Shown: positions 1,707-23,148 of the stretch, one piece after another
Numbering within the stretch: the stretch's first letter is position 1
Layout of the letters: every line of letters begins with the position of its first letter
Source: Fimbriimonadales bacterium
GTDB lineage: Bacteria; Armatimonadota; Fimbriimonadia; Fimbriimonadales; JABRVX01
Assembly: GCA_045862955.1 (NCBI GenBank)
Contig: BTVI01000025.1
Coordinates: forward strand, 1 to 46,595
DNA: 46,595 bases
Direction of reading: 5' to 3'
The notes under the pieces: model-generated
What the model saw: only the letters and a program-made list of their open reading frames with translations
Told to the model about the DNA's origin: nothing
Databases searched by the model: none
Translations under genes and position numbers: made by a program

Positions 1707-1983
1707 CCTGGCTCCTCCCTTTCCGCGGATTCTACCGGCGGGTGCGGACGGCCGAACGTGGAAACCCCGCCCTTGGACCCTGTACGCGTTCGTGGAGCAC
1801 TCGAGTACCTGTCGCGTCTCACCTTGTCTCGGGAGCCGTGAGACGAGCAGGATTGCGGGGTTCCACGGCAACCCGAAAACCCAGTTCAGGTTCTGGTCAC
1901 TCTGGCAGCCGGCCTGTCCGACAATCCTGGGCGAAGGCAGGGACAGGATGTCCGCGCCGTGACCGAACAGGGAGGTCGTAGGA

Positions 1984-3195
1984 ATGCCACGCTTTGCCTA
2001 TAGCGCGGTGGACCCCGCGGGACGCAACGTCCGAGGCGTGATCGAAGCCGACTCGGAGGAACACGTCCTGAGCCGTCTGCACGAGCAGCAGATGCATGTA
2101 ACCAGCGTCAAGCTGGCAAGGGGCGGAGCGGGTGCCCGCAGTGCCCTCTTGAAGCCCAAGAAGCCCAAGCTGCAGTCGCTCGTTATCTTCTCGCGTCAGT
2201 TCGCTACGATGATCAATGCAGGCATCCCCATTCTTCGCTGCTTGGACATTCTGGCGGGGCAGATCAAGGACCCGGCTCTGCGCGAGGCCCTCGAGCAGGT
2301 CCGCGCGGACGTGAAGGGAGGCCAGTCCCTCAACGAGGCGATGGCCAAGCACCCGATGGTGTTCAACCGCCTGTACGTCAACATGATCCGTGCGGCCGAG
2401 GTGGGAGGCATCCTGGATACGATCCTGGATCGACTCGCGCAGTTCCTCGAGTCGGAGATGGAGATTCGTACCAAGATCAAGTCCGCGATGATGTACCCGG
2501 TGATGGTACTGATAGCCTCTGCCTTGATGTTGTTCGCCCTCTTCACCTTCGTGCTACCGAAGTTCAAGGACATCTTTGCCGGCATGGGTGTGGAGATGCC
2601 ACCTGTCACTGCCGCGCTGTTTGCGATGGGTGACTTCATGAAGGCATTCTGGTGGGTCATCATCGGGGCAGGCTTCGGGATGTTCTTGGCGATGAAGTTC
2701 TACGGGCGCACGAAGAAGGGGCGCTACCAGTTCGACTATATGAAGCTGCGCATGCCCATCGTGGGCGAACTGAGCCTCAAGATGTCTCTTGCGAGATTTG
2801 CGAGGACGTTCGGCACCCTAATAGCCAGTGGTGTTCCGATGATGCGCTCTTTGGAGATCGTCGGTGAGACCACTGGCAACGCGGTTCTCTCCAGCGCGAT
2901 AGATGTGGCAAGAGGCAGCATTCGGGAAGGCAAGCAACTCAGTGCGCCGCTCGCGGCCAGCGGCCTCTTTCCTGCCATGGTCACGCAGATGATAGACGTC
3001 GGCGAGGAAAGTGGGCGTCTCAACGAGATGCTGGTCAAAGTGTCGGACTTCTATGACACCGAGGTAGCGCAAGCCGTCAAGGGTCTCACCTCGATGATCG
3101 AGCCACTGCTCATCGTGGTCATGGGTGGCATCGTCGGCTTCATCGCAATCTCGGTCATGACACCTATCTTCAAGCTGGTCAACTCGGTTCAATAG
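1984..3195 (+). CDS. pilC: Type IV pilus / T2SS inner-membrane platform protein (PilC/GspF family)
   Basis: FSRQFATMINAG, AAEVGG.L, IKSAMMYP, GEESG.L, IEP.LIV; two T2SSF repeats. Confidence 0.93.
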   Translation: MPRFAYSAVDPAGRNVRGVIEADSEEHVLSRLHEQQMHVTSVKLARGGAGARSALLKPKKPKLQSLVIFSRQFATMINAGIPILRCLDILAGQIKDPALREALEQVRADVKGGQSLNEAMAKHPMVFNRLYVNMIRAAEVGGILDTILDRLAQFLESEMEIRTKIKSAMMYPVMVLIASALMLFALFTFVLPKFKDIFAGMGVEMPPVTAALFAMGDFMKAFWWVIIGAGFGMFLAMKFYGRTKKGRYQFDYMKLRMPIVGELSLKMSLARFARTFGTLIASGVPMMRSLEIVGETTGNAVLSSAIDVARGSIREGKQLSAPLAASGLFPAMVTQMIDVGEESGRLNEMLVKVSDFYDTEVAQAVKGLTSMIEPLLIVVMGGIVGFIAISVMTPIFKLVNSVQ

Positions 3196-3285
3196 CGACC
3201 TGTTACAGCTCAGGCGTGCACAGGAAGTGTGCGCCGAGGCCCAACAGACCCCGGGCTAGCCGGGGGACCAAGGAGGAACATCACG

Positions 3286-4572
3286 TTGGGGGATTGCGCT
3301 CGAATCAGGATGGACCCTGAAGAGATGGTAGCGCTGTATTCACGGACCAAAGAGCCCGACTTGAGGGACGCCGTGACCTTGCACTACGCAGGGATGGTTG
3401 AACGCATCGCTCGTCGCTTCGCAGGATCATCGGAGCCGATCGAAGACCTGGCGCAGGTCGGTTTCATCGGCCTGCTCAACGCACTGGAGCTTTTCGACCC
3501 CAGCAAAGGGGTCAAGTTTTCCACCTACGCCACACACCTGGTGGCAGGAGAGATCAAGCACCACCTACGTGACAAGGGAAAGATCATCAAGGAGCCCGCT
3601 TGGTTGCAGGAGCTGAACCAGCGGATCAACCGTATCATCCAGTCTCTCGCGCAGGAGCTGGGACGTCAGCCAACGGCCGCGGAGATCGCCGCGAACATGC
3701 GCATGACCGAAGAGGCGATCACCGAGGTACTGATGACGCGGGACGTGTTCAAGGTGCTCTCGATTGACGGTGCGACCGACGAAGACGACAGTGACAAGCC
3801 CTACGACCTAGACAAGATGGAGCCTCATGAAGAAGCTACCTTTCAGCTTCCTATCGAGGACAAGATGGTTCTCGAGACCGCCGTGATCCACCTCAAAGAG
3901 GTGGAGCAGAAGGTGATCCATCTCTTCTTCTACGATGGTCTCAACCAGACGGAGATCGCCGCTGCGTTGGACATCTCCTGCAACTACGTGTCACACATCC
4001 TAAGGCACTCCGTTCAGAAACTGCGCAAGATCCTGGTAACAGAGGACCTCAAGGATCGTCAGTTGCGCATCCGTCACGCACCCGACAGCGAAAGCGACGT
4101 GATGGACGACCAGACCGGCCTCTACGGACCCGACTACTTTCGCTCGCGGCTGTCCGAGGAGATCCAACGCGCTTCGCTCGATGGCTCCAAGATGTCGGTG
4201 GCGATCGTTCGGTTCCACGGACTCGAACAGCTGCGCAGTTTCTACGGGGATATGACGGTTGGGGAGTTCCTCACGCAAGCGGGCACCGTGATCCGCGGCA
4301 ACATCCGGAAGCTCGACGTGCTGTGTCGCGAAGGCGAGTTCGCCTTTGGCGTCATCCTCCCTCACGTCGAGCGTATGCGGGTGGAGATAGACGCGCTCTT
4401 GGAGCAGAAGCTGGCCGAGTGGCTCGACCGGCTGTTTTCTGCGAAGGGGCAGGTCGGTTTTCGCGTCGGACGCGCGGACTTCCCAGACGACGGCTCGACC
4501 CTTCGCGAGTTGCTCGACACCGCCTCACGTGCGGCGGACTGGGAAGCCAGCCTCCTGCGGCAGGCAGCCTGA
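3286..4572 (+). CDS. SigB/SigF/SigG-family sigma-70 factor fused to a C-terminal degenerate GGDEF domain
   Basis: Region 2 EDLAQVGFIGL..A...FDP.KG.KFSTYA....GEIKHHLRD; region 3 ELGRQPT; region 4 LNQTEIA..L.IS...VS; then D..TGLY...YF...L.EEI.RA and RKLD...REGEFAF. TTG start after AGGAGG (ATG 3310 is an alternative). Confidence 0.88.
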   Translation: MGDCARIRMDPEEMVALYSRTKEPDLRDAVTLHYAGMVERIARRFAGSSEPIEDLAQVGFIGLLNALELFDPSKGVKFSTYATHLVAGEIKHHLRDKGKIIKEPAWLQELNQRINRIIQSLAQELGRQPTAAEIAANMRMTEEAITEVLMTRDVFKVLSIDGATDEDDSDKPYDLDKMEPHEEATFQLPIEDKMVLETAVIHLKEVEQKVIHLFFYDGLNQTEIAAALDISCNYVSHILRHSVQKLRKILVTEDLKDRQLRIRHAPDSESDVMDDQTGLYGPDYFRSRLSEEIQRASLDGSKMSVAIVRFHGLEQLRSFYGDMTVGEFLTQAGTVIRGNIRKLDVLCREGEFAFGVILPHVERMRVEIDALLEQKLAEWLDRLFSAKGQVGFRVGRADFPDDGSTLRELLDTASRAADWEASLLRQAA

Positions 4573-10276: not shown

Positions 10277-10404
10277 CCACTTCATGCCCCGGCCCGCGTC
10301 CGGCACTTGGCAGCACCGAAGGTATGAATCCAACCCGAGGACCGCGCCGGGGCATGTGGACGACATGGCACCGGCTAAGACCACCGGAGCCTCCAACAGC
10401 ATGA
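10228..10404. repeat. Family A palindrome (10284-10355) flanked by a 49-bp direct duplication (10228-10276 / 10356-10404)
   Basis: GTGGACGACATGGCACCGGCTAAGACCACCGGAGCC(C/T)CCAACAGCATGA occurs twice, 48/49 identical. Confidence 0.92.
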
Positions 10405-21000: not shown

Positions 21001-21216
21001 ATCCTGCACGGAGTCGAGGTGGAACTCGTGTGCCTCACCGAACTCTGGTGCGGCGCGCAGCAAGGACTTGGCCGACTCGACGTGCCCCCGCCCCGGCAGC
21101 ACCAGTACGACATCCTCGGGCCGGTCGAGGAAGCGCTGCAGACAGTATCGCGTCTTGCCGGAGCCGGGTGGTCCGGCGGCGACGACCAGTGTTGGACGCG
21201 GGGCGAATGGGTTCAA
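18088..21216 (-). CDS. addB: AddB-like PD-(D/E)XK nuclease subunit with Fe-S cluster
   Basis: N-terminal GPPGSGKT; C-terminal G.VDRID...DYK and Cys pattern C...CxxCx5C; TTG start at 21216 is inferred because the longer ORF reads through the repeat array. Confidence 0.85.
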   Translation of the reverse strand: MNPFAPRPTLVVAAGPPGSGKTRYCLQRFLDRPEDVVLVLPGRGHVESAKSLLRAAPEFGEAHEFHLDSVQDWSRFVGTAVDLARGKPFLPASRSTRLAVAATVASEARSGYFGKVAETLGFQERLADVIEELTSSGLTPEDLQEAGERAEVTDKRFPDKCHALAGLWERYDALLAEMGMRGPSAAAAAACDAVLRAGGLSFPEVWLDGFGVLSQLQVELLCALAERSRVGITVTWAPGCEELFAGASAMLRRLEERFEVVRVDIEAGPSVRRSRTMRTLRDTLFMEGSEAAGWDEEVLFVSCPNRLAEVEAAARFALRLLREKSLGLPDIQVVVRDVEAYWPMLEAVWPRFGLTPSRAVERPIADNPFVRFLFSVLTLFAGGWQREDVLSHLESSYAFRREEGRRLRRALGGSRGAGLSNWLLRAKDLQEEGVECSERLVELAEWSRRFEEPLTAADFAALTRNMATEMGWASLATEAGDSCANDDFLATAAAYRVAEAMGGVSKARGDGRTRLASFLPRWIGMCRLVPYRAPAKPGIRVVESPEENTHPPRVALLLGVLEGVFPRRLSEDAFLTDEERLELRRITGCLLPTGYERAMDERRRFYLAATQPTETLYAFFPRAEEDSEALPSLYLDEVRRCLPPGAVRDVMVACGRPLAPDGESQLAPSSELCFLDEDLLLHAALTGSTDAGRGRETGSTDAPFDEWSVMPRFPRIELTEAALLAGRRPGPIPITELETLNRCAFQHWARYRAGLRGAAGALSRADTGSLLHEILRDALRGADDADLLDRLCSELQSRLETIRLDVPDWEVQAVYAMALGMLTSLAERETAYRQAVTARPEFFEWRFGEPEIEETADRQRDPRSTSKPLRLHAADGRHVDLAGSVDRIDVDPKGGSMLILDYKLGSDSSRPIQRVEHGESVQLPLYALAVRELLGASDVSVGFDSLGGAERTMRTSQSQRDVWRPASQAQGCVCHTWGDSQWETVLQAARKKVFDLVARLERADVTPIPGPDHCPTCPYGDLCRTTEGRFHDGEPYPEVSGG

Positions 21217-21218
21217 GG

Positions 21219-21778
21219 TATCGATCCCAATGTAACCGCTACGGGACGCGCCGCGCGAGGGTTTTCTATGCCCCGGCCCGCGTCCGCCAACGGGCAGCGC
21301 CGACGGTAGGAAGCAAACCCAAGGACCGCGCCGGGGCCAGAGTCGGGACAGCCGTGCCCTCGCCGTCGGCATGATGGCGGCATCCGATGCAACGCTCGCG
21401 GCTTGCGTTTGCATGCTTCGACAGGCTCAGCATGACGATCGGGGGCGGCTGTTTTCTCTATGCCCCGGCCCGCGTCTGCCAACGGGCAGCGCCGACGGTA
21501 GGAAGCAAACCTAAGGAACGCGCCGGGGCGAGAGTCGGGACAGCCGTGCCCTCGCCGTCGGCATGATGGCGGCATCCGATGCAACGCTCGCGGCTTGCGT
21601 TTGCATGCTTCGACAGGCTCAGCATGACGATCGGGGGCGGCTGTTTTCTCTATGCCCCGGCCCGCGTCCGCCAACGGGCAGCAGCGACGGTAGGAAGCAA
21701 ACCCAAGGACCGCGCCGGGGCACGAATGACGAAATATCGGTCCCAACGCAACCGCTACGGGACGCGCCGCGCGAGGGT
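21219..21778. repeat. 192-bp-period tandem array (three family A palindromes at 21268, 21460, 21652; two family B at 21411, 21603) flanked by a 44-bp direct duplication (21219-21262 / 21735-21778)
   Basis: Units are nearly identical; flanks TATCGRTCCCAAYGYAACCGCTACGGGACGCGCCGCGCGAGGGT match at 41/44. Confidence 0.93.
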
Positions 21779-23148
21779 CATTCACCGTGCAAGGCGCGGA
21801 GCATCCGCAGGGCGCCCTCTTTGTCACCCATCGCAAGTCGCCCGTCCAGCACAGCCTCTGTTAGCTCATCCTTGAGTCGTCCAACCTCGTCTCCCGGCTG
21901 GATGCCGAGCGCATCCATTATCTCGCGCCCGGTTAGTGGGCTTTTCGCGTCGGTTGCGTGAAAGTCGGTCTCTACTCTGCGAGCACGCTCCTCGAGACTA
22001 TCGAGGTCAGGCACTTCTATGTCATTCCTTCGTGCGGCGGCATCCGCACGACACAGGATGAGCAGGTCATCGAAGAGCTTCCCTGCATCGCGCAGCAGGC
22101 GGCGAACAGCCCCGTCTGTCCACTGTGGCGAGTACCCGCCCGGCCGCATATGCAGGCGAACGAGCTCCAGCGTATCGGCGATCACGTCGCTCGGGAACTT
22201 GAGCCTTCGCAGGAAAGCCCTCGCCGGGGACAGTCCGGCAATCTGATGGTCGAAAAAGCGTATCCTCCCGTCCTCGTCCACCGACTTCGTGAGTGGCTTC
22301 CCGACGTCGTGCAACAGTGTCGCCAGCCGCAGTGGCAGGGATGCATCGGGGGGAAGCGCCTCGACCGCCACCACGGTGTGTTCCCACACGTCGTGAACGT
22401 GCGCCCAGTTCTGCTCGCATCCGACCATTGCCTGAAGCTCGGGAGCGAAGGCTGCGAGCAGCCCCAGGCTCTCCAGTTGGCGAAGAGCAGTGCCGGCGGA
22501 TGGATGCGTGAGCATTTTCGTCAGTTCGTCGCGAATGCGCTCGCCGCTGATGATTCGCAGGCGTTCGGCCTCGGCTCGGATCGCTTCTTGGCAATCCTGT
22601 GCGATGGAGAAGTCCAGCCTGCACGCGAGTCGCACGGCGCGTAACATACGCAGCGGATCGTCGCGGAACGTACGATGAGGATCGAGTGGGGTGCGTAGGA
22701 CCCTCCGCGACAGGTCGTCCATGCCGCACCCCAACGGATCGGACACTTCTCCGGTGTGCAGGTTCTCCAATAGGGTGTTCACGGTGAAGTCGCGCCGCAG
22801 CGCATCGGTGGCCAAGTCGGTCTGCACTACATGCGGTTTGCGGCTGAACGGGTCATAGGTCTCGCGTCGGGCGCCGACGATTTCCACCGGCACTCCCGCA
22901 ACCTGAATTCGGGCGGTTCCGAAGCGCGGGTAGAGAACCGGAGCATGCGAGCTGACGCCCTTGCGGAACAAAAAGGAAGCAAGAGCGCAGGCGTTCCCCT
23001 CCAGCACCAAGTCCAGGTCTTCGGCAGGTGGTATCCCGAGCCGCTTGTCCCGGACGTATCCCCCAACAAGGAAGAGCGAGTTCTCGTACTCCGTGCCGCA
23101 CGTGGCATCACGGAGTCGCGCGATCGCTTCATCCAGAGCGGTGCTCAT
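21778..23148 (-). CDS. cca: CCA tRNA nucleotidyltransferase with HD domain
   Basis: VGG.VRD, DLD, RRDFTVN, DDPLRMLRAVR, ERIRDEL, LLHDVGK. Confidence 0.92.
   Translation of the reverse strand: MSTALDEAIARLRDATCGTEYENSLFLVGGYVRDKRLGIPPAEDLDLVLEGNACALASFLFRKGVSSHAPVLYPRFGTARIQVAGVPVEIVGARRETYDPFSRKPHVVQTDLATDALRRDFTVNTLLENLHTGEVSDPLGCGMDDLSRRVLRTPLDPHRTFRDDPLRMLRAVRLACRLDFSIAQDCQEAIRAEAERLRIISGERIRDELTKMLTHPSAGTALRQLESLGLLAAFAPELQAMVGCEQNWAHVHDVWEHTVVAVEALPPDASLPLRLATLLHDVGKPLTKSVDEDGRIRFFDHQIAGLSPARAFLRRLKFPSDVIADTLELVRLHMRPGGYSPQWTDGAVRRLLRDAGKLFDDLLILCRADAAARRNDIEVPDLDSLEERARRVETDFHATDAKSPLTGREIMDALGIQPGDEVGRLKDELTEAVLDGRLAMGDKEGALRMLRALHGE

Follow-up and report, generated by a model that had tools for sequence, protein, structure and literature searches.

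A single gene of a Fimbriimonadales genome encodes a group-3 sigma factor that continues in frame into a GGDEF domain, in which the active site has decayed and the residues that bind c-di-GMP in PleD are, across the fusion family, among the best-kept columns. We consider it moderately likely that the protein is the first known case of a sigma factor with a nucleotide second messenger as its own ligand, and that it belongs to a fusion family of single origin, found across the phylum, in which a dead GGDEF domain replaced an anti-sigma factor. The protein would form the middle tier of a cascade running from a FliA/WhiG-type sigma through the gated sigma to pilin and a GerE-like regulator, with a promoter class of its own, TCTCA-N15-RTGGAA. 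That c-di-GMP gates these proteins in some form throughout the family is very probable. The particular mechanism we propose, a one-component sigma for pilin and the GerE-like regulator that is switched off when c-di-GMP cross-links two copies, is only marginally favored, and the off direction is its weakest step.

An in-frame sigma-GGDEF fusion

The gene lies in a stretch of DNA of 46,595 nucleotides (the window). Its parts, in window coordinates, are as follows.

3286..4572, + strand: fused sigma-GGDEF gene, a single frame of 428 aa with a TTG start and AGGAGG at 3271-3276
3382..3582, + strand: Sigma70 region 2 (core binding and -10 recognition), SigB/F-type (PF04542, 69.8 bits)
3610..3795, + strand: Sigma70 region 3 (PF04539, 50.8 bits)
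3889..4029, + strand: Sigma70 region 4 with the family-specific recognition helix ISCNYVSH (PF04545, 45.5 bits)
4030..4101, + strand: helical stalk and linker (AlphaFold2 model)
4102..4533, + strand: catalytically dead GGDEF domain (Pfam, domain model and structure matches)

The Pfam matches to Sigma70 regions 2, 3, and 4 and to GGDEF (residues 33-99, 109-170, 202-248, and 273-416, respectively) are all above cut-off, that to GGDEF scoring 60.4 bits against a cut-off of 23.8, in agreement with the initial annotation, which had read the gene as a complete group-3 SigB/F/G-like sigma continuing into a GGDEF-fold domain. The fold of the C-terminus was checked by profiles and by AlphaFold2. Modelled alone, the GGDEF domain gave a pLDDT of 94 and matched GGDEF structures at Z 18-19 (top Z 19.4), PleD (2wb4) being matched at Z 18.6 with an rmsd of 2.4 over 144 aligned residues. 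In the full-length AlphaFold2 model (pLDDT 86, pTM 0.45) a helix spanning residues 232-264 is predicted to start at the -35 recognition helix and to extend without a break in the direction of the GGDEF domain, and no fixed inter-domain packing is seen. Among homologues, region 2 is rich in invariant columns and the region 4 recognition helix ISCNYVSH is invariant across 89 aligned sequences.

The protein has sigma regions 2, 3, and 4 and lacks region 1.1. Its best NCBIfam family is SigB/F/G (TIGR02980), with a score of 193.1 bits that is below the curated cut-off of 234.35, and we therefore assign it to a divergent SigB/F-like clade and not to a named group. The best specific NCBIfam match, cyanobacterial SigF (PRK07408), was also below its cut-off (167.5 bits versus 261), and SigB structures were the first structural matches of the sigma model. 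The FliA_WhiG model scored 125.9 bits versus a cut-off of 189.6, and the FliA/WhiG protein of this genome is encoded by a separate gene.

An independent DNA study (run X4) gave one contig across the whole locus with no indel and with RKLD and Leu371 unchanged. An alternative ATG at 3310 is altered by a strain variant (run X11). Two RNA runs (X17 and X18) covered part of the gene including the sigma-GGDEF junction; owing to their low depth and to the availability of contigs only, they were not taken as proof of expression.

Distribution and origin of the fusion

The fusion extends well beyond this assembly. Strong matches (E<=1e-90, counted by hand) occur in 188 of 301 Armatimonadota genomes, and those examined are full-length fusions except for two truncated matches. 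At E<=1e-60 the count is 222/301. The weaker matches are one family of 21 genomes (f6) having a divergent domain that kept RxxD in 4/6 examined, another of 12 genomes (f34) in which 5/5 examined were unfused, and one further unfused match. A GGDEF family assignment was present in all of at least 120 homologues among the matches listed. Of 272 genome-collection loci, 80 were kept, of which 73 are titled as Armatimonadota, six only as 'bacterium', and one as a betaproteobacterium, and named distant members and Atlas clusters are also Armatimonadota. The locus titled betaproteobacterium (L070) has the gene order pilC-sigma-RibD-like-ABC, as in Fimbriimonadaceae loci, and is probably a mislabelled bin.

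In a quick tree, 70/70 fused rows fell within one clade (SH-aLRT 98). The same clade holds 20 rows scored as unfused, which are fragments or secondary losses. A single origin of the fusion is likely. A search of the openly accessible literature yielded no description of a sigma-GGDEF fusion; the parts are of known kinds and their combination appears to be undescribed.

Loss of the active site and retention of c-di-GMP ligand residues

The positions that bear on catalysis and on the predicted ligand binding are given below.

4210..4218, + strand: R-F-H replacing the metal-binding D-x-D (Asp at both positions in 30/30 active controls)
4333..4347, + strand: GEFAF, a decayed GGDEF motif (sequence and fusion family comparison)
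4306..4317, + strand: RKLD, the RxxD primary I-site (PleD R359/D362; gapless PleD map)
4168..4170, + strand: Arg295, equivalent of PleD R313, a secondary, cross-linking I-site residue (gapless PleD map)
4396..4398, + strand: Leu371, equivalent in position to PleD R390, where the family has Arg (homologue alignment)
4378..4380, + strand: Arg365, candidate compensation for the lost Arg371 (close-homologue comparison)

R-F-H, GEFAF, and the RKLD that precedes GEFAF by five residues lie exactly where they had been annotated. Residues 272-361 align gap-free to PleD 290-379, such that R295 corresponds to R313, R341 to R359, and D344 to D362, and column 371 corresponds to R390 after a one-residue insertion. 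In the cross-linked dimer of PleD, c-di-GMP is bound by these four residues (PMC7288161).

Conservation was examined in 314 fusions drawn from 419 sequences, which upon dereplication to below 50% identity left 94. GG[DE]EF is intact in 0/314 fusions, and the active site is therefore dead, as annotated, whereas RxxD is kept in 310/314 and the R390-equivalent arginine in 304/314. The initial annotation had argued for a receptor from the RxxD placed five residues ahead of the decayed motif. Conservation of RxxD among homologues was borne out, but the argument itself does not discriminate, since RxxD is the default in the active cyclases of the phylum (30/30 controls, which are the top Pfam scorers and hence consensus-biased). 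RxxD was therefore rejected as sufficient proof of a receptor.

The pattern across the whole domain is more informative. In the dereplicated set the five best-kept GGDEF columns are D344 (92/94), R295 (91), R341 (90), E292 (90), and R371 (89), and all four ligand residues occur together in 84/94 fusions versus 17/30 active cyclases of the phylum. Columns that are invariant in the controls (D-x-D, GG[DE]EF, and R348) decay in the fusions, R348 being kept in 76/94. Such selective retention of the ligand arginines in an otherwise drifting domain argues well for a receptor, and the comparison supports the view that the I-site of the fusion family is kept under selection.

The description of the I-site as intact thus fits the family, but not this protein, which has Leu at position 371 where 115/121 close homologues have Arg. 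Arg365 is found in exactly the 6/121 close homologues that lack Arg371, all of a single clade, and might possibly compensate for the missing residue. Sequence comparison gives WspR from P. syringae a Lys in the R390 column, and DgcR binds c-di-GMP without an R390-equivalent arginine (PMC8041772), so Leu371 weakens but does not exclude c-di-GMP binding. Active cyclases and HD-GYP proteins are both present in the genome: four of its proteins have GG[DE]EF, one has SGEEF, and three are of the HD-GYP kind.

Two matches are found in several genomes. Three fused copies (P0179, P0185, and P0187) have lost RxxD entirely and are possibly constitutive paralogues. The fused sigma at one locus (L220, G287:C1:2834314-2835294) is interrupted by an in-frame stop codon immediately ahead of the I-site and is a pseudogene or contains a sequencing error. 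A protein of 1274 aa with about seven tandem GGDEF-like domains (P0217) was also met in the profile search.

RsbW-type anti-sigma genes

The statement that no anti-sigma gene lies nearby can be broadened: a search of the window and of the genome, which is 97.6% complete, gave no RsbW-type gene (E<=1e-14), and the PF13581 matches in this genome are partial and lie within long frames only. None was found in the sampled genomes of four families, all of them fusion carriers (f2 0/4, f9 0/3, f16 0/4, and f28 0/1). RsbW-type genes are present in 44/61 sampled genomes, including many fusion-positive families, and several unfused relatives of the sigma lie directly downstream of an rsbW-like gene. The lack of RsbW in this genome and the four families, taken together with the position of the unfused relatives behind rsbW, suggests that the fused domain may have replaced RsbW control.

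The probable pilC-sigma operon and its inferred promoter

Two features upstream of the fused gene concern its own expression.

1984..3195, + strand: pilC, type IV pilus platform protein, the first gene of a likely two-gene operon
1918..1925, + strand: CCGACAAT, inferred -10 box of sigma-28 (FliA/WhiG) type for the pilC-sigma operon

The adjacency to pilC noted in the initial annotation is widespread, pilC being directly upstream of the sigma gene in 58/74 informative close loci (six loci that were too short were excluded) and in 30/52 distant loci. All 16 close loci that lack an upstream pilC bear titles beginning Chthonomonad-. Some loci have the order secretin-pilB-pilT-pilC-sigma. In the present genome the cognate pilB and pilT are on another contig, with an HDOD gene between them.

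The motif CCGANAAT was found upstream of 43/62 cognate pilC genes, near-duplicates and pilT-preceded pilC genes having been removed, versus a mean of 1.3 and a maximum of 4 in shuffles and 0/15 for paralogous pilC genes. Some loci read TAAA-N16-GCCGATAA upstream of pilC, which matches the flagellar consensus quoted in PMC8325347. FliA/WhiG is present in 60/60 genomes, and in this genome CCGANAAT is also found upstream of flagellin. Here it precedes as well genes that we read as flgM, cheC, cheW, PilZ, and pilB. The possibility that CCGANAAT is the fused sigma's own promoter was rejected, since the motif is enriched in four fusion-less genomes (318-424 sites versus 69-146 for the reversed motif). 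Because it persists where the fusion has been lost, it belongs to another sigma, most likely FliA/WhiG. Autoregulation through RTGGAA before pilC was also rejected (15/62 versus 8.4 +/- 2.9 in shuffles, not significant).

The form CCGABAAT is 2- to 9-fold above its reversed control in 16/16 Fimbriimonadales genomes, and in the genome studied it is found, in addition, ahead of polysaccharide synthesis genes and of genes taken to be clpP, trxB, and tyrS. The regulon of the FliA/WhiG-type sigma may be unusually broad, or CCGABAAT may in part represent housekeeping -10 boxes. Note that in three fusion-less genomes (G142, G237, and G242) FliA/WhiG is more divergent (E about 1e-56 versus 1e-70).

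Association with one pilus system

The association with pili was followed within one genus (g2, 11 genomes). The sigma is present in 6/6 genomes that have the cognate PilB, and these six share the sigma, the PilB orthologue (61-63%), and the pilin. Four genomes without the sigma also lack the cognate pilC (40-41% versus 65%), an orthologue of the unlinked PilB (46%) or of the pilin (35% or none), and a PilT orthologue (55-58% versus 66%, with one fusion-positive genome as reference). By parsimony this co-loss represents at least two losses, and related genomes are not independent in this or the other gene and motif co-occurrence counts. In one g2 genome (G232) the sigma is intact and the pilus absent; a pseudogene was considered and rejected, as the stop is the normal end of the gene. 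Likewise, in families f9 and f28 the cognate pilC is absent in 5/5 tested genomes that keep the sigma.

In the searched genomes the pilus thus never occurs without the sigma, and the sigma does occur without the pilus. Since it is kept in genomes without that pilus, pili are not the only role of the fused sigma. The annotated link to pili is supported for one pilus system, but not as a sole role. The cognate PilB (L245:955-2718; C5:83954-85720 in this genome; also L015, L024, L056, and L080) has an MshEN domain. It lacks the RLG start of the MshEN c-di-GMP-binding motif, whereas the PilB encoded on contig C1 of this genome has an RLG start.

Candidate target promoters

RTGGAA precedes 22/36 pilin genes (four mid-gene matches and duplicates were dropped), versus 3 on the reverse strand and 5.6 +/- 2.1 in shuffles (maximum 13). 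In this genome it also precedes a GerE-family gene of 91 aa at C2:39394, located 2 kb from pilA (C2:41175), which was one pick from 90 motif matches and the only one tested. The most marked association came from this gene: RTGGAA lies 40-90 nt upstream of the GerE-like orthologue in 32/35 fusion-positive genomes (19/21 + 13/14) versus 2/12 fusion-negative genomes (0/4 + 2/8), for which absence of the fusion was confirmed. In a comparison of five families (E<=1e-24) the gene itself was present in 13/14 fusion-positive genomes versus 0/21 fusion-negative genomes. The exceptions are two genomes that keep RTGGAA without the fusion (G154 and G118) and three fused genomes without an exact RTGGAA (G282, G004, and G158).

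A TCTCA-like box is found 14-16 nt upstream of RTGGAA in 16/32 GerE promoters (3 and 1 at control spacings) and is unclear before the pilA of this genome. A second conserved element 15-21 nt downstream of RTGGAA allows other parsings. The SigB promoter is RGGXTTRA-N14-GGGTAT (PMC2758279), and TCTCA-N15-RTGGAA, our candidate for the promoter class of the fused sigma, has its geometry and spacing; the different -35 may be explained by the recognition helix peculiar to the fused family. Alternatively, a co-lost transcription factor could own the RTGGAA site.

Sigma-54 and ECF parsings of RTGGAA were rejected by inspection because the spacing does not fit. Exact ATCTCA-N14-16-RTGGAA occurs 0-14 times per genome and gives no clean split between fusion-positive and fusion-negative genomes, and a scan of this genome with the SigB-type GGGTA[AT] gave noise that overlaps housekeeping -10 boxes. 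A PWM scan of this genome at score 14 gave 18 matches versus 7 on the reverse strand and no full regulon. Its second-best site (score 20.3) is upstream of a gene read as plsX (C7:93980, - strand).

Proposed mechanism and alternatives

One further feature enters the mechanism.

4564..4569, + strand: C-terminal Ala-Ala, likely ClpXP degradation tag (close-homologue count versus genome background)

Ala-Ala ends 113/120 close homologues and the proteins of 75/80 loci, versus 43 of 2727 genes in this genome (1.6%). It is found in 7/54 distant fusions, 16/57 representatives, and 0/10 unfused relatives. The genome has clpX, and the terminal Ala-Ala is presumably a ClpXP tag.

We propose that a FliA/WhiG-type sigma transcribes pilC together with the fused sigma gene, a step that has a good probability. 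The fused sigma would then recognise, as seems fairly likely, TCTCA(A)-N14/15-RTGGAA upstream of the GerE-like gene and also of pilins, where the -35 is weaker. By analogy to inhibited PleD, dimeric c-di-GMP would be held by RxxD and the R390 equivalent of one chain and by Arg295 of a second chain, which is highly likely for the family and appreciably less so, though still favored, for this Leu371 protein. The cross-linked dimer would be unable to serve RNA polymerase, the fused domain standing in for the RsbW anti-sigma of the unfused relatives, with a slight leaning toward this direction over its reverse. The C-terminal Ala-Ala would keep the pool of fused sigma short-lived in this lineage. 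Elements of the scheme have precedents. WhiG, for which promoters are predicted within a pilus cluster, is held in check by c-di-GMP (PMC8325347), and SigF drives pilA within a sigma cascade (PMC6495340).

The reverse sign, in which the sigma is kept inactive by its GGDEF domain until c-di-GMP releases or activates it, would turn pilin on at high c-di-GMP, as in surface attachment. Pili are often stimulated by c-di-GMP, and the lack of the RLG start in the cognate PilB suggests that the point at which c-di-GMP acts may have shifted to transcription. In ECF sigmas, too, a fused extension can be necessary for activity and can be activated by a ligand (PMC8999054). However, the conserved Arg295 points to cross-linking, which inhibits PleD, DgcR, and WspR (PMC7288161, PMC8041772, PMC2270323), and the model has no fixed packing of the GGDEF domain on sigma regions 2-3 (pTM 0.45). 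We regard activation as unlikely. Proteolysis or localisation, and not polymerase binding, could instead be what c-di-GMP gates, with a built-in PopA-like receptor handing the sigma to ClpXP through Ala-Ala. PopA and CtrA reportedly provide a precedent for c-di-GMP-gated proteolysis, and the abundance of Ala-Ala in close homologues and the presence of clpX are in keeping with it. Yet the I-site is kept throughout the family, including the many distant fusions and representatives that lack Ala-Ala, which leaves this route quite improbable.

Alternatively, ligand gating might be absent, with the GGDEF domain serving for dimerisation or for binding a partner, or with the I-site decaying in this lineage. 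Leu371 in this clade and the three paralogues that lack the whole I-site fit such a reading, and degenerate GGDEF domains can be adaptors, as exemplified by FimX (PMC7288161). Against it, the I-site disappears from degenerate GGDEF domains where there is no c-di-GMP (PMC9239204), and the best-kept columns here are ligand residues and not a hydrophobic patch. We consider the absence of gating about as improbable as gated proteolysis.

Relation to known systems

PopA is a degenerate GGDEF receptor with a dead active site and a retained RxxD I-site. PelD combines the same two properties (table in PMC7288161). The outputs of PelD and PopA are polysaccharide synthesis and proteolysis, whereas in the fusion the output domain is a sigma factor. 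PleD, WspR, and DgcR share the fold (Z 17-19), a helical stalk ahead of DxxTG, and all four ligand positions (PMC7288161, PMC2270323, PMC8041772), but are active product-inhibited enzymes, whereas the fused domain is without any catalytic motif.

A close regulatory parallel is the RsiG-(c-di-GMP)2-WhiG switch of Streptomyces and Rubrobacter, in which c-di-GMP also controls a group-3 sigma and for which the predicted Rubrobacter targets include type IV pilus genes (PMC8325347). There, a separate anti-sigma binds the nucleotide with an E-S-R-Q-D motif and the sigma belongs to the flagellar clade (PMC8325347), whereas here the predicted receptor, a GGDEF I-site, and the SigB/F-type sigma are parts of one chain. 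Cyanobacterial SigF resembles the fused protein in being a SigB-related group-3 sigma that acts late in a cascade on a small pilA-centred regulon, but it has no fused domain and its promoter is TAGGC/GGTAA, versus the candidate TCTCA/RTGGAA here (PMC2758279, PMC6495340). ECF41, ECF42, and CorE are one-component sigmas in which a fused regulatory domain replaces the anti-sigma, but they are group-4 proteins with SnoaL, TPR, or cysteine-rich extensions (PMC8999054). The fused sigma does not fit the ECF class, which has only regions 2 and 4, as it has region 3. The accessible part of that ECF review (PMC8999054) makes no mention of GGDEF or c-di-GMP.

In the literature examined, c-di-GMP controls sigma factors through a separate anti-sigma (PMC8325347). 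A sigma with its own c-di-GMP pocket, if real, would be a new and minimal means of tying promoter choice to a second messenger, could be used as a c-di-GMP-responsive switch made of one gene, and would supply a first regulatory circuit for the numerous pili found in the Armatimonadota.

Other sequence elements

In Chthonomonadales, a leader element, GCGTACGATGGGAACGAAGGCGC, lies just upstream of the sigma gene in seven loci (L023, L027, L031, L037, L045, L052, and L062), and a variant of it is found in five others (L009, L019, L032, L061, and L074). The leader core was present in 12/16 versus 0.2 in shuffles. An Rfam search with the element gave no match; it is possibly an RNA regulatory element. 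In the window, short repeats at 1-560, 10280-10330, and 21213-21836 yield repetitive spurious frames.
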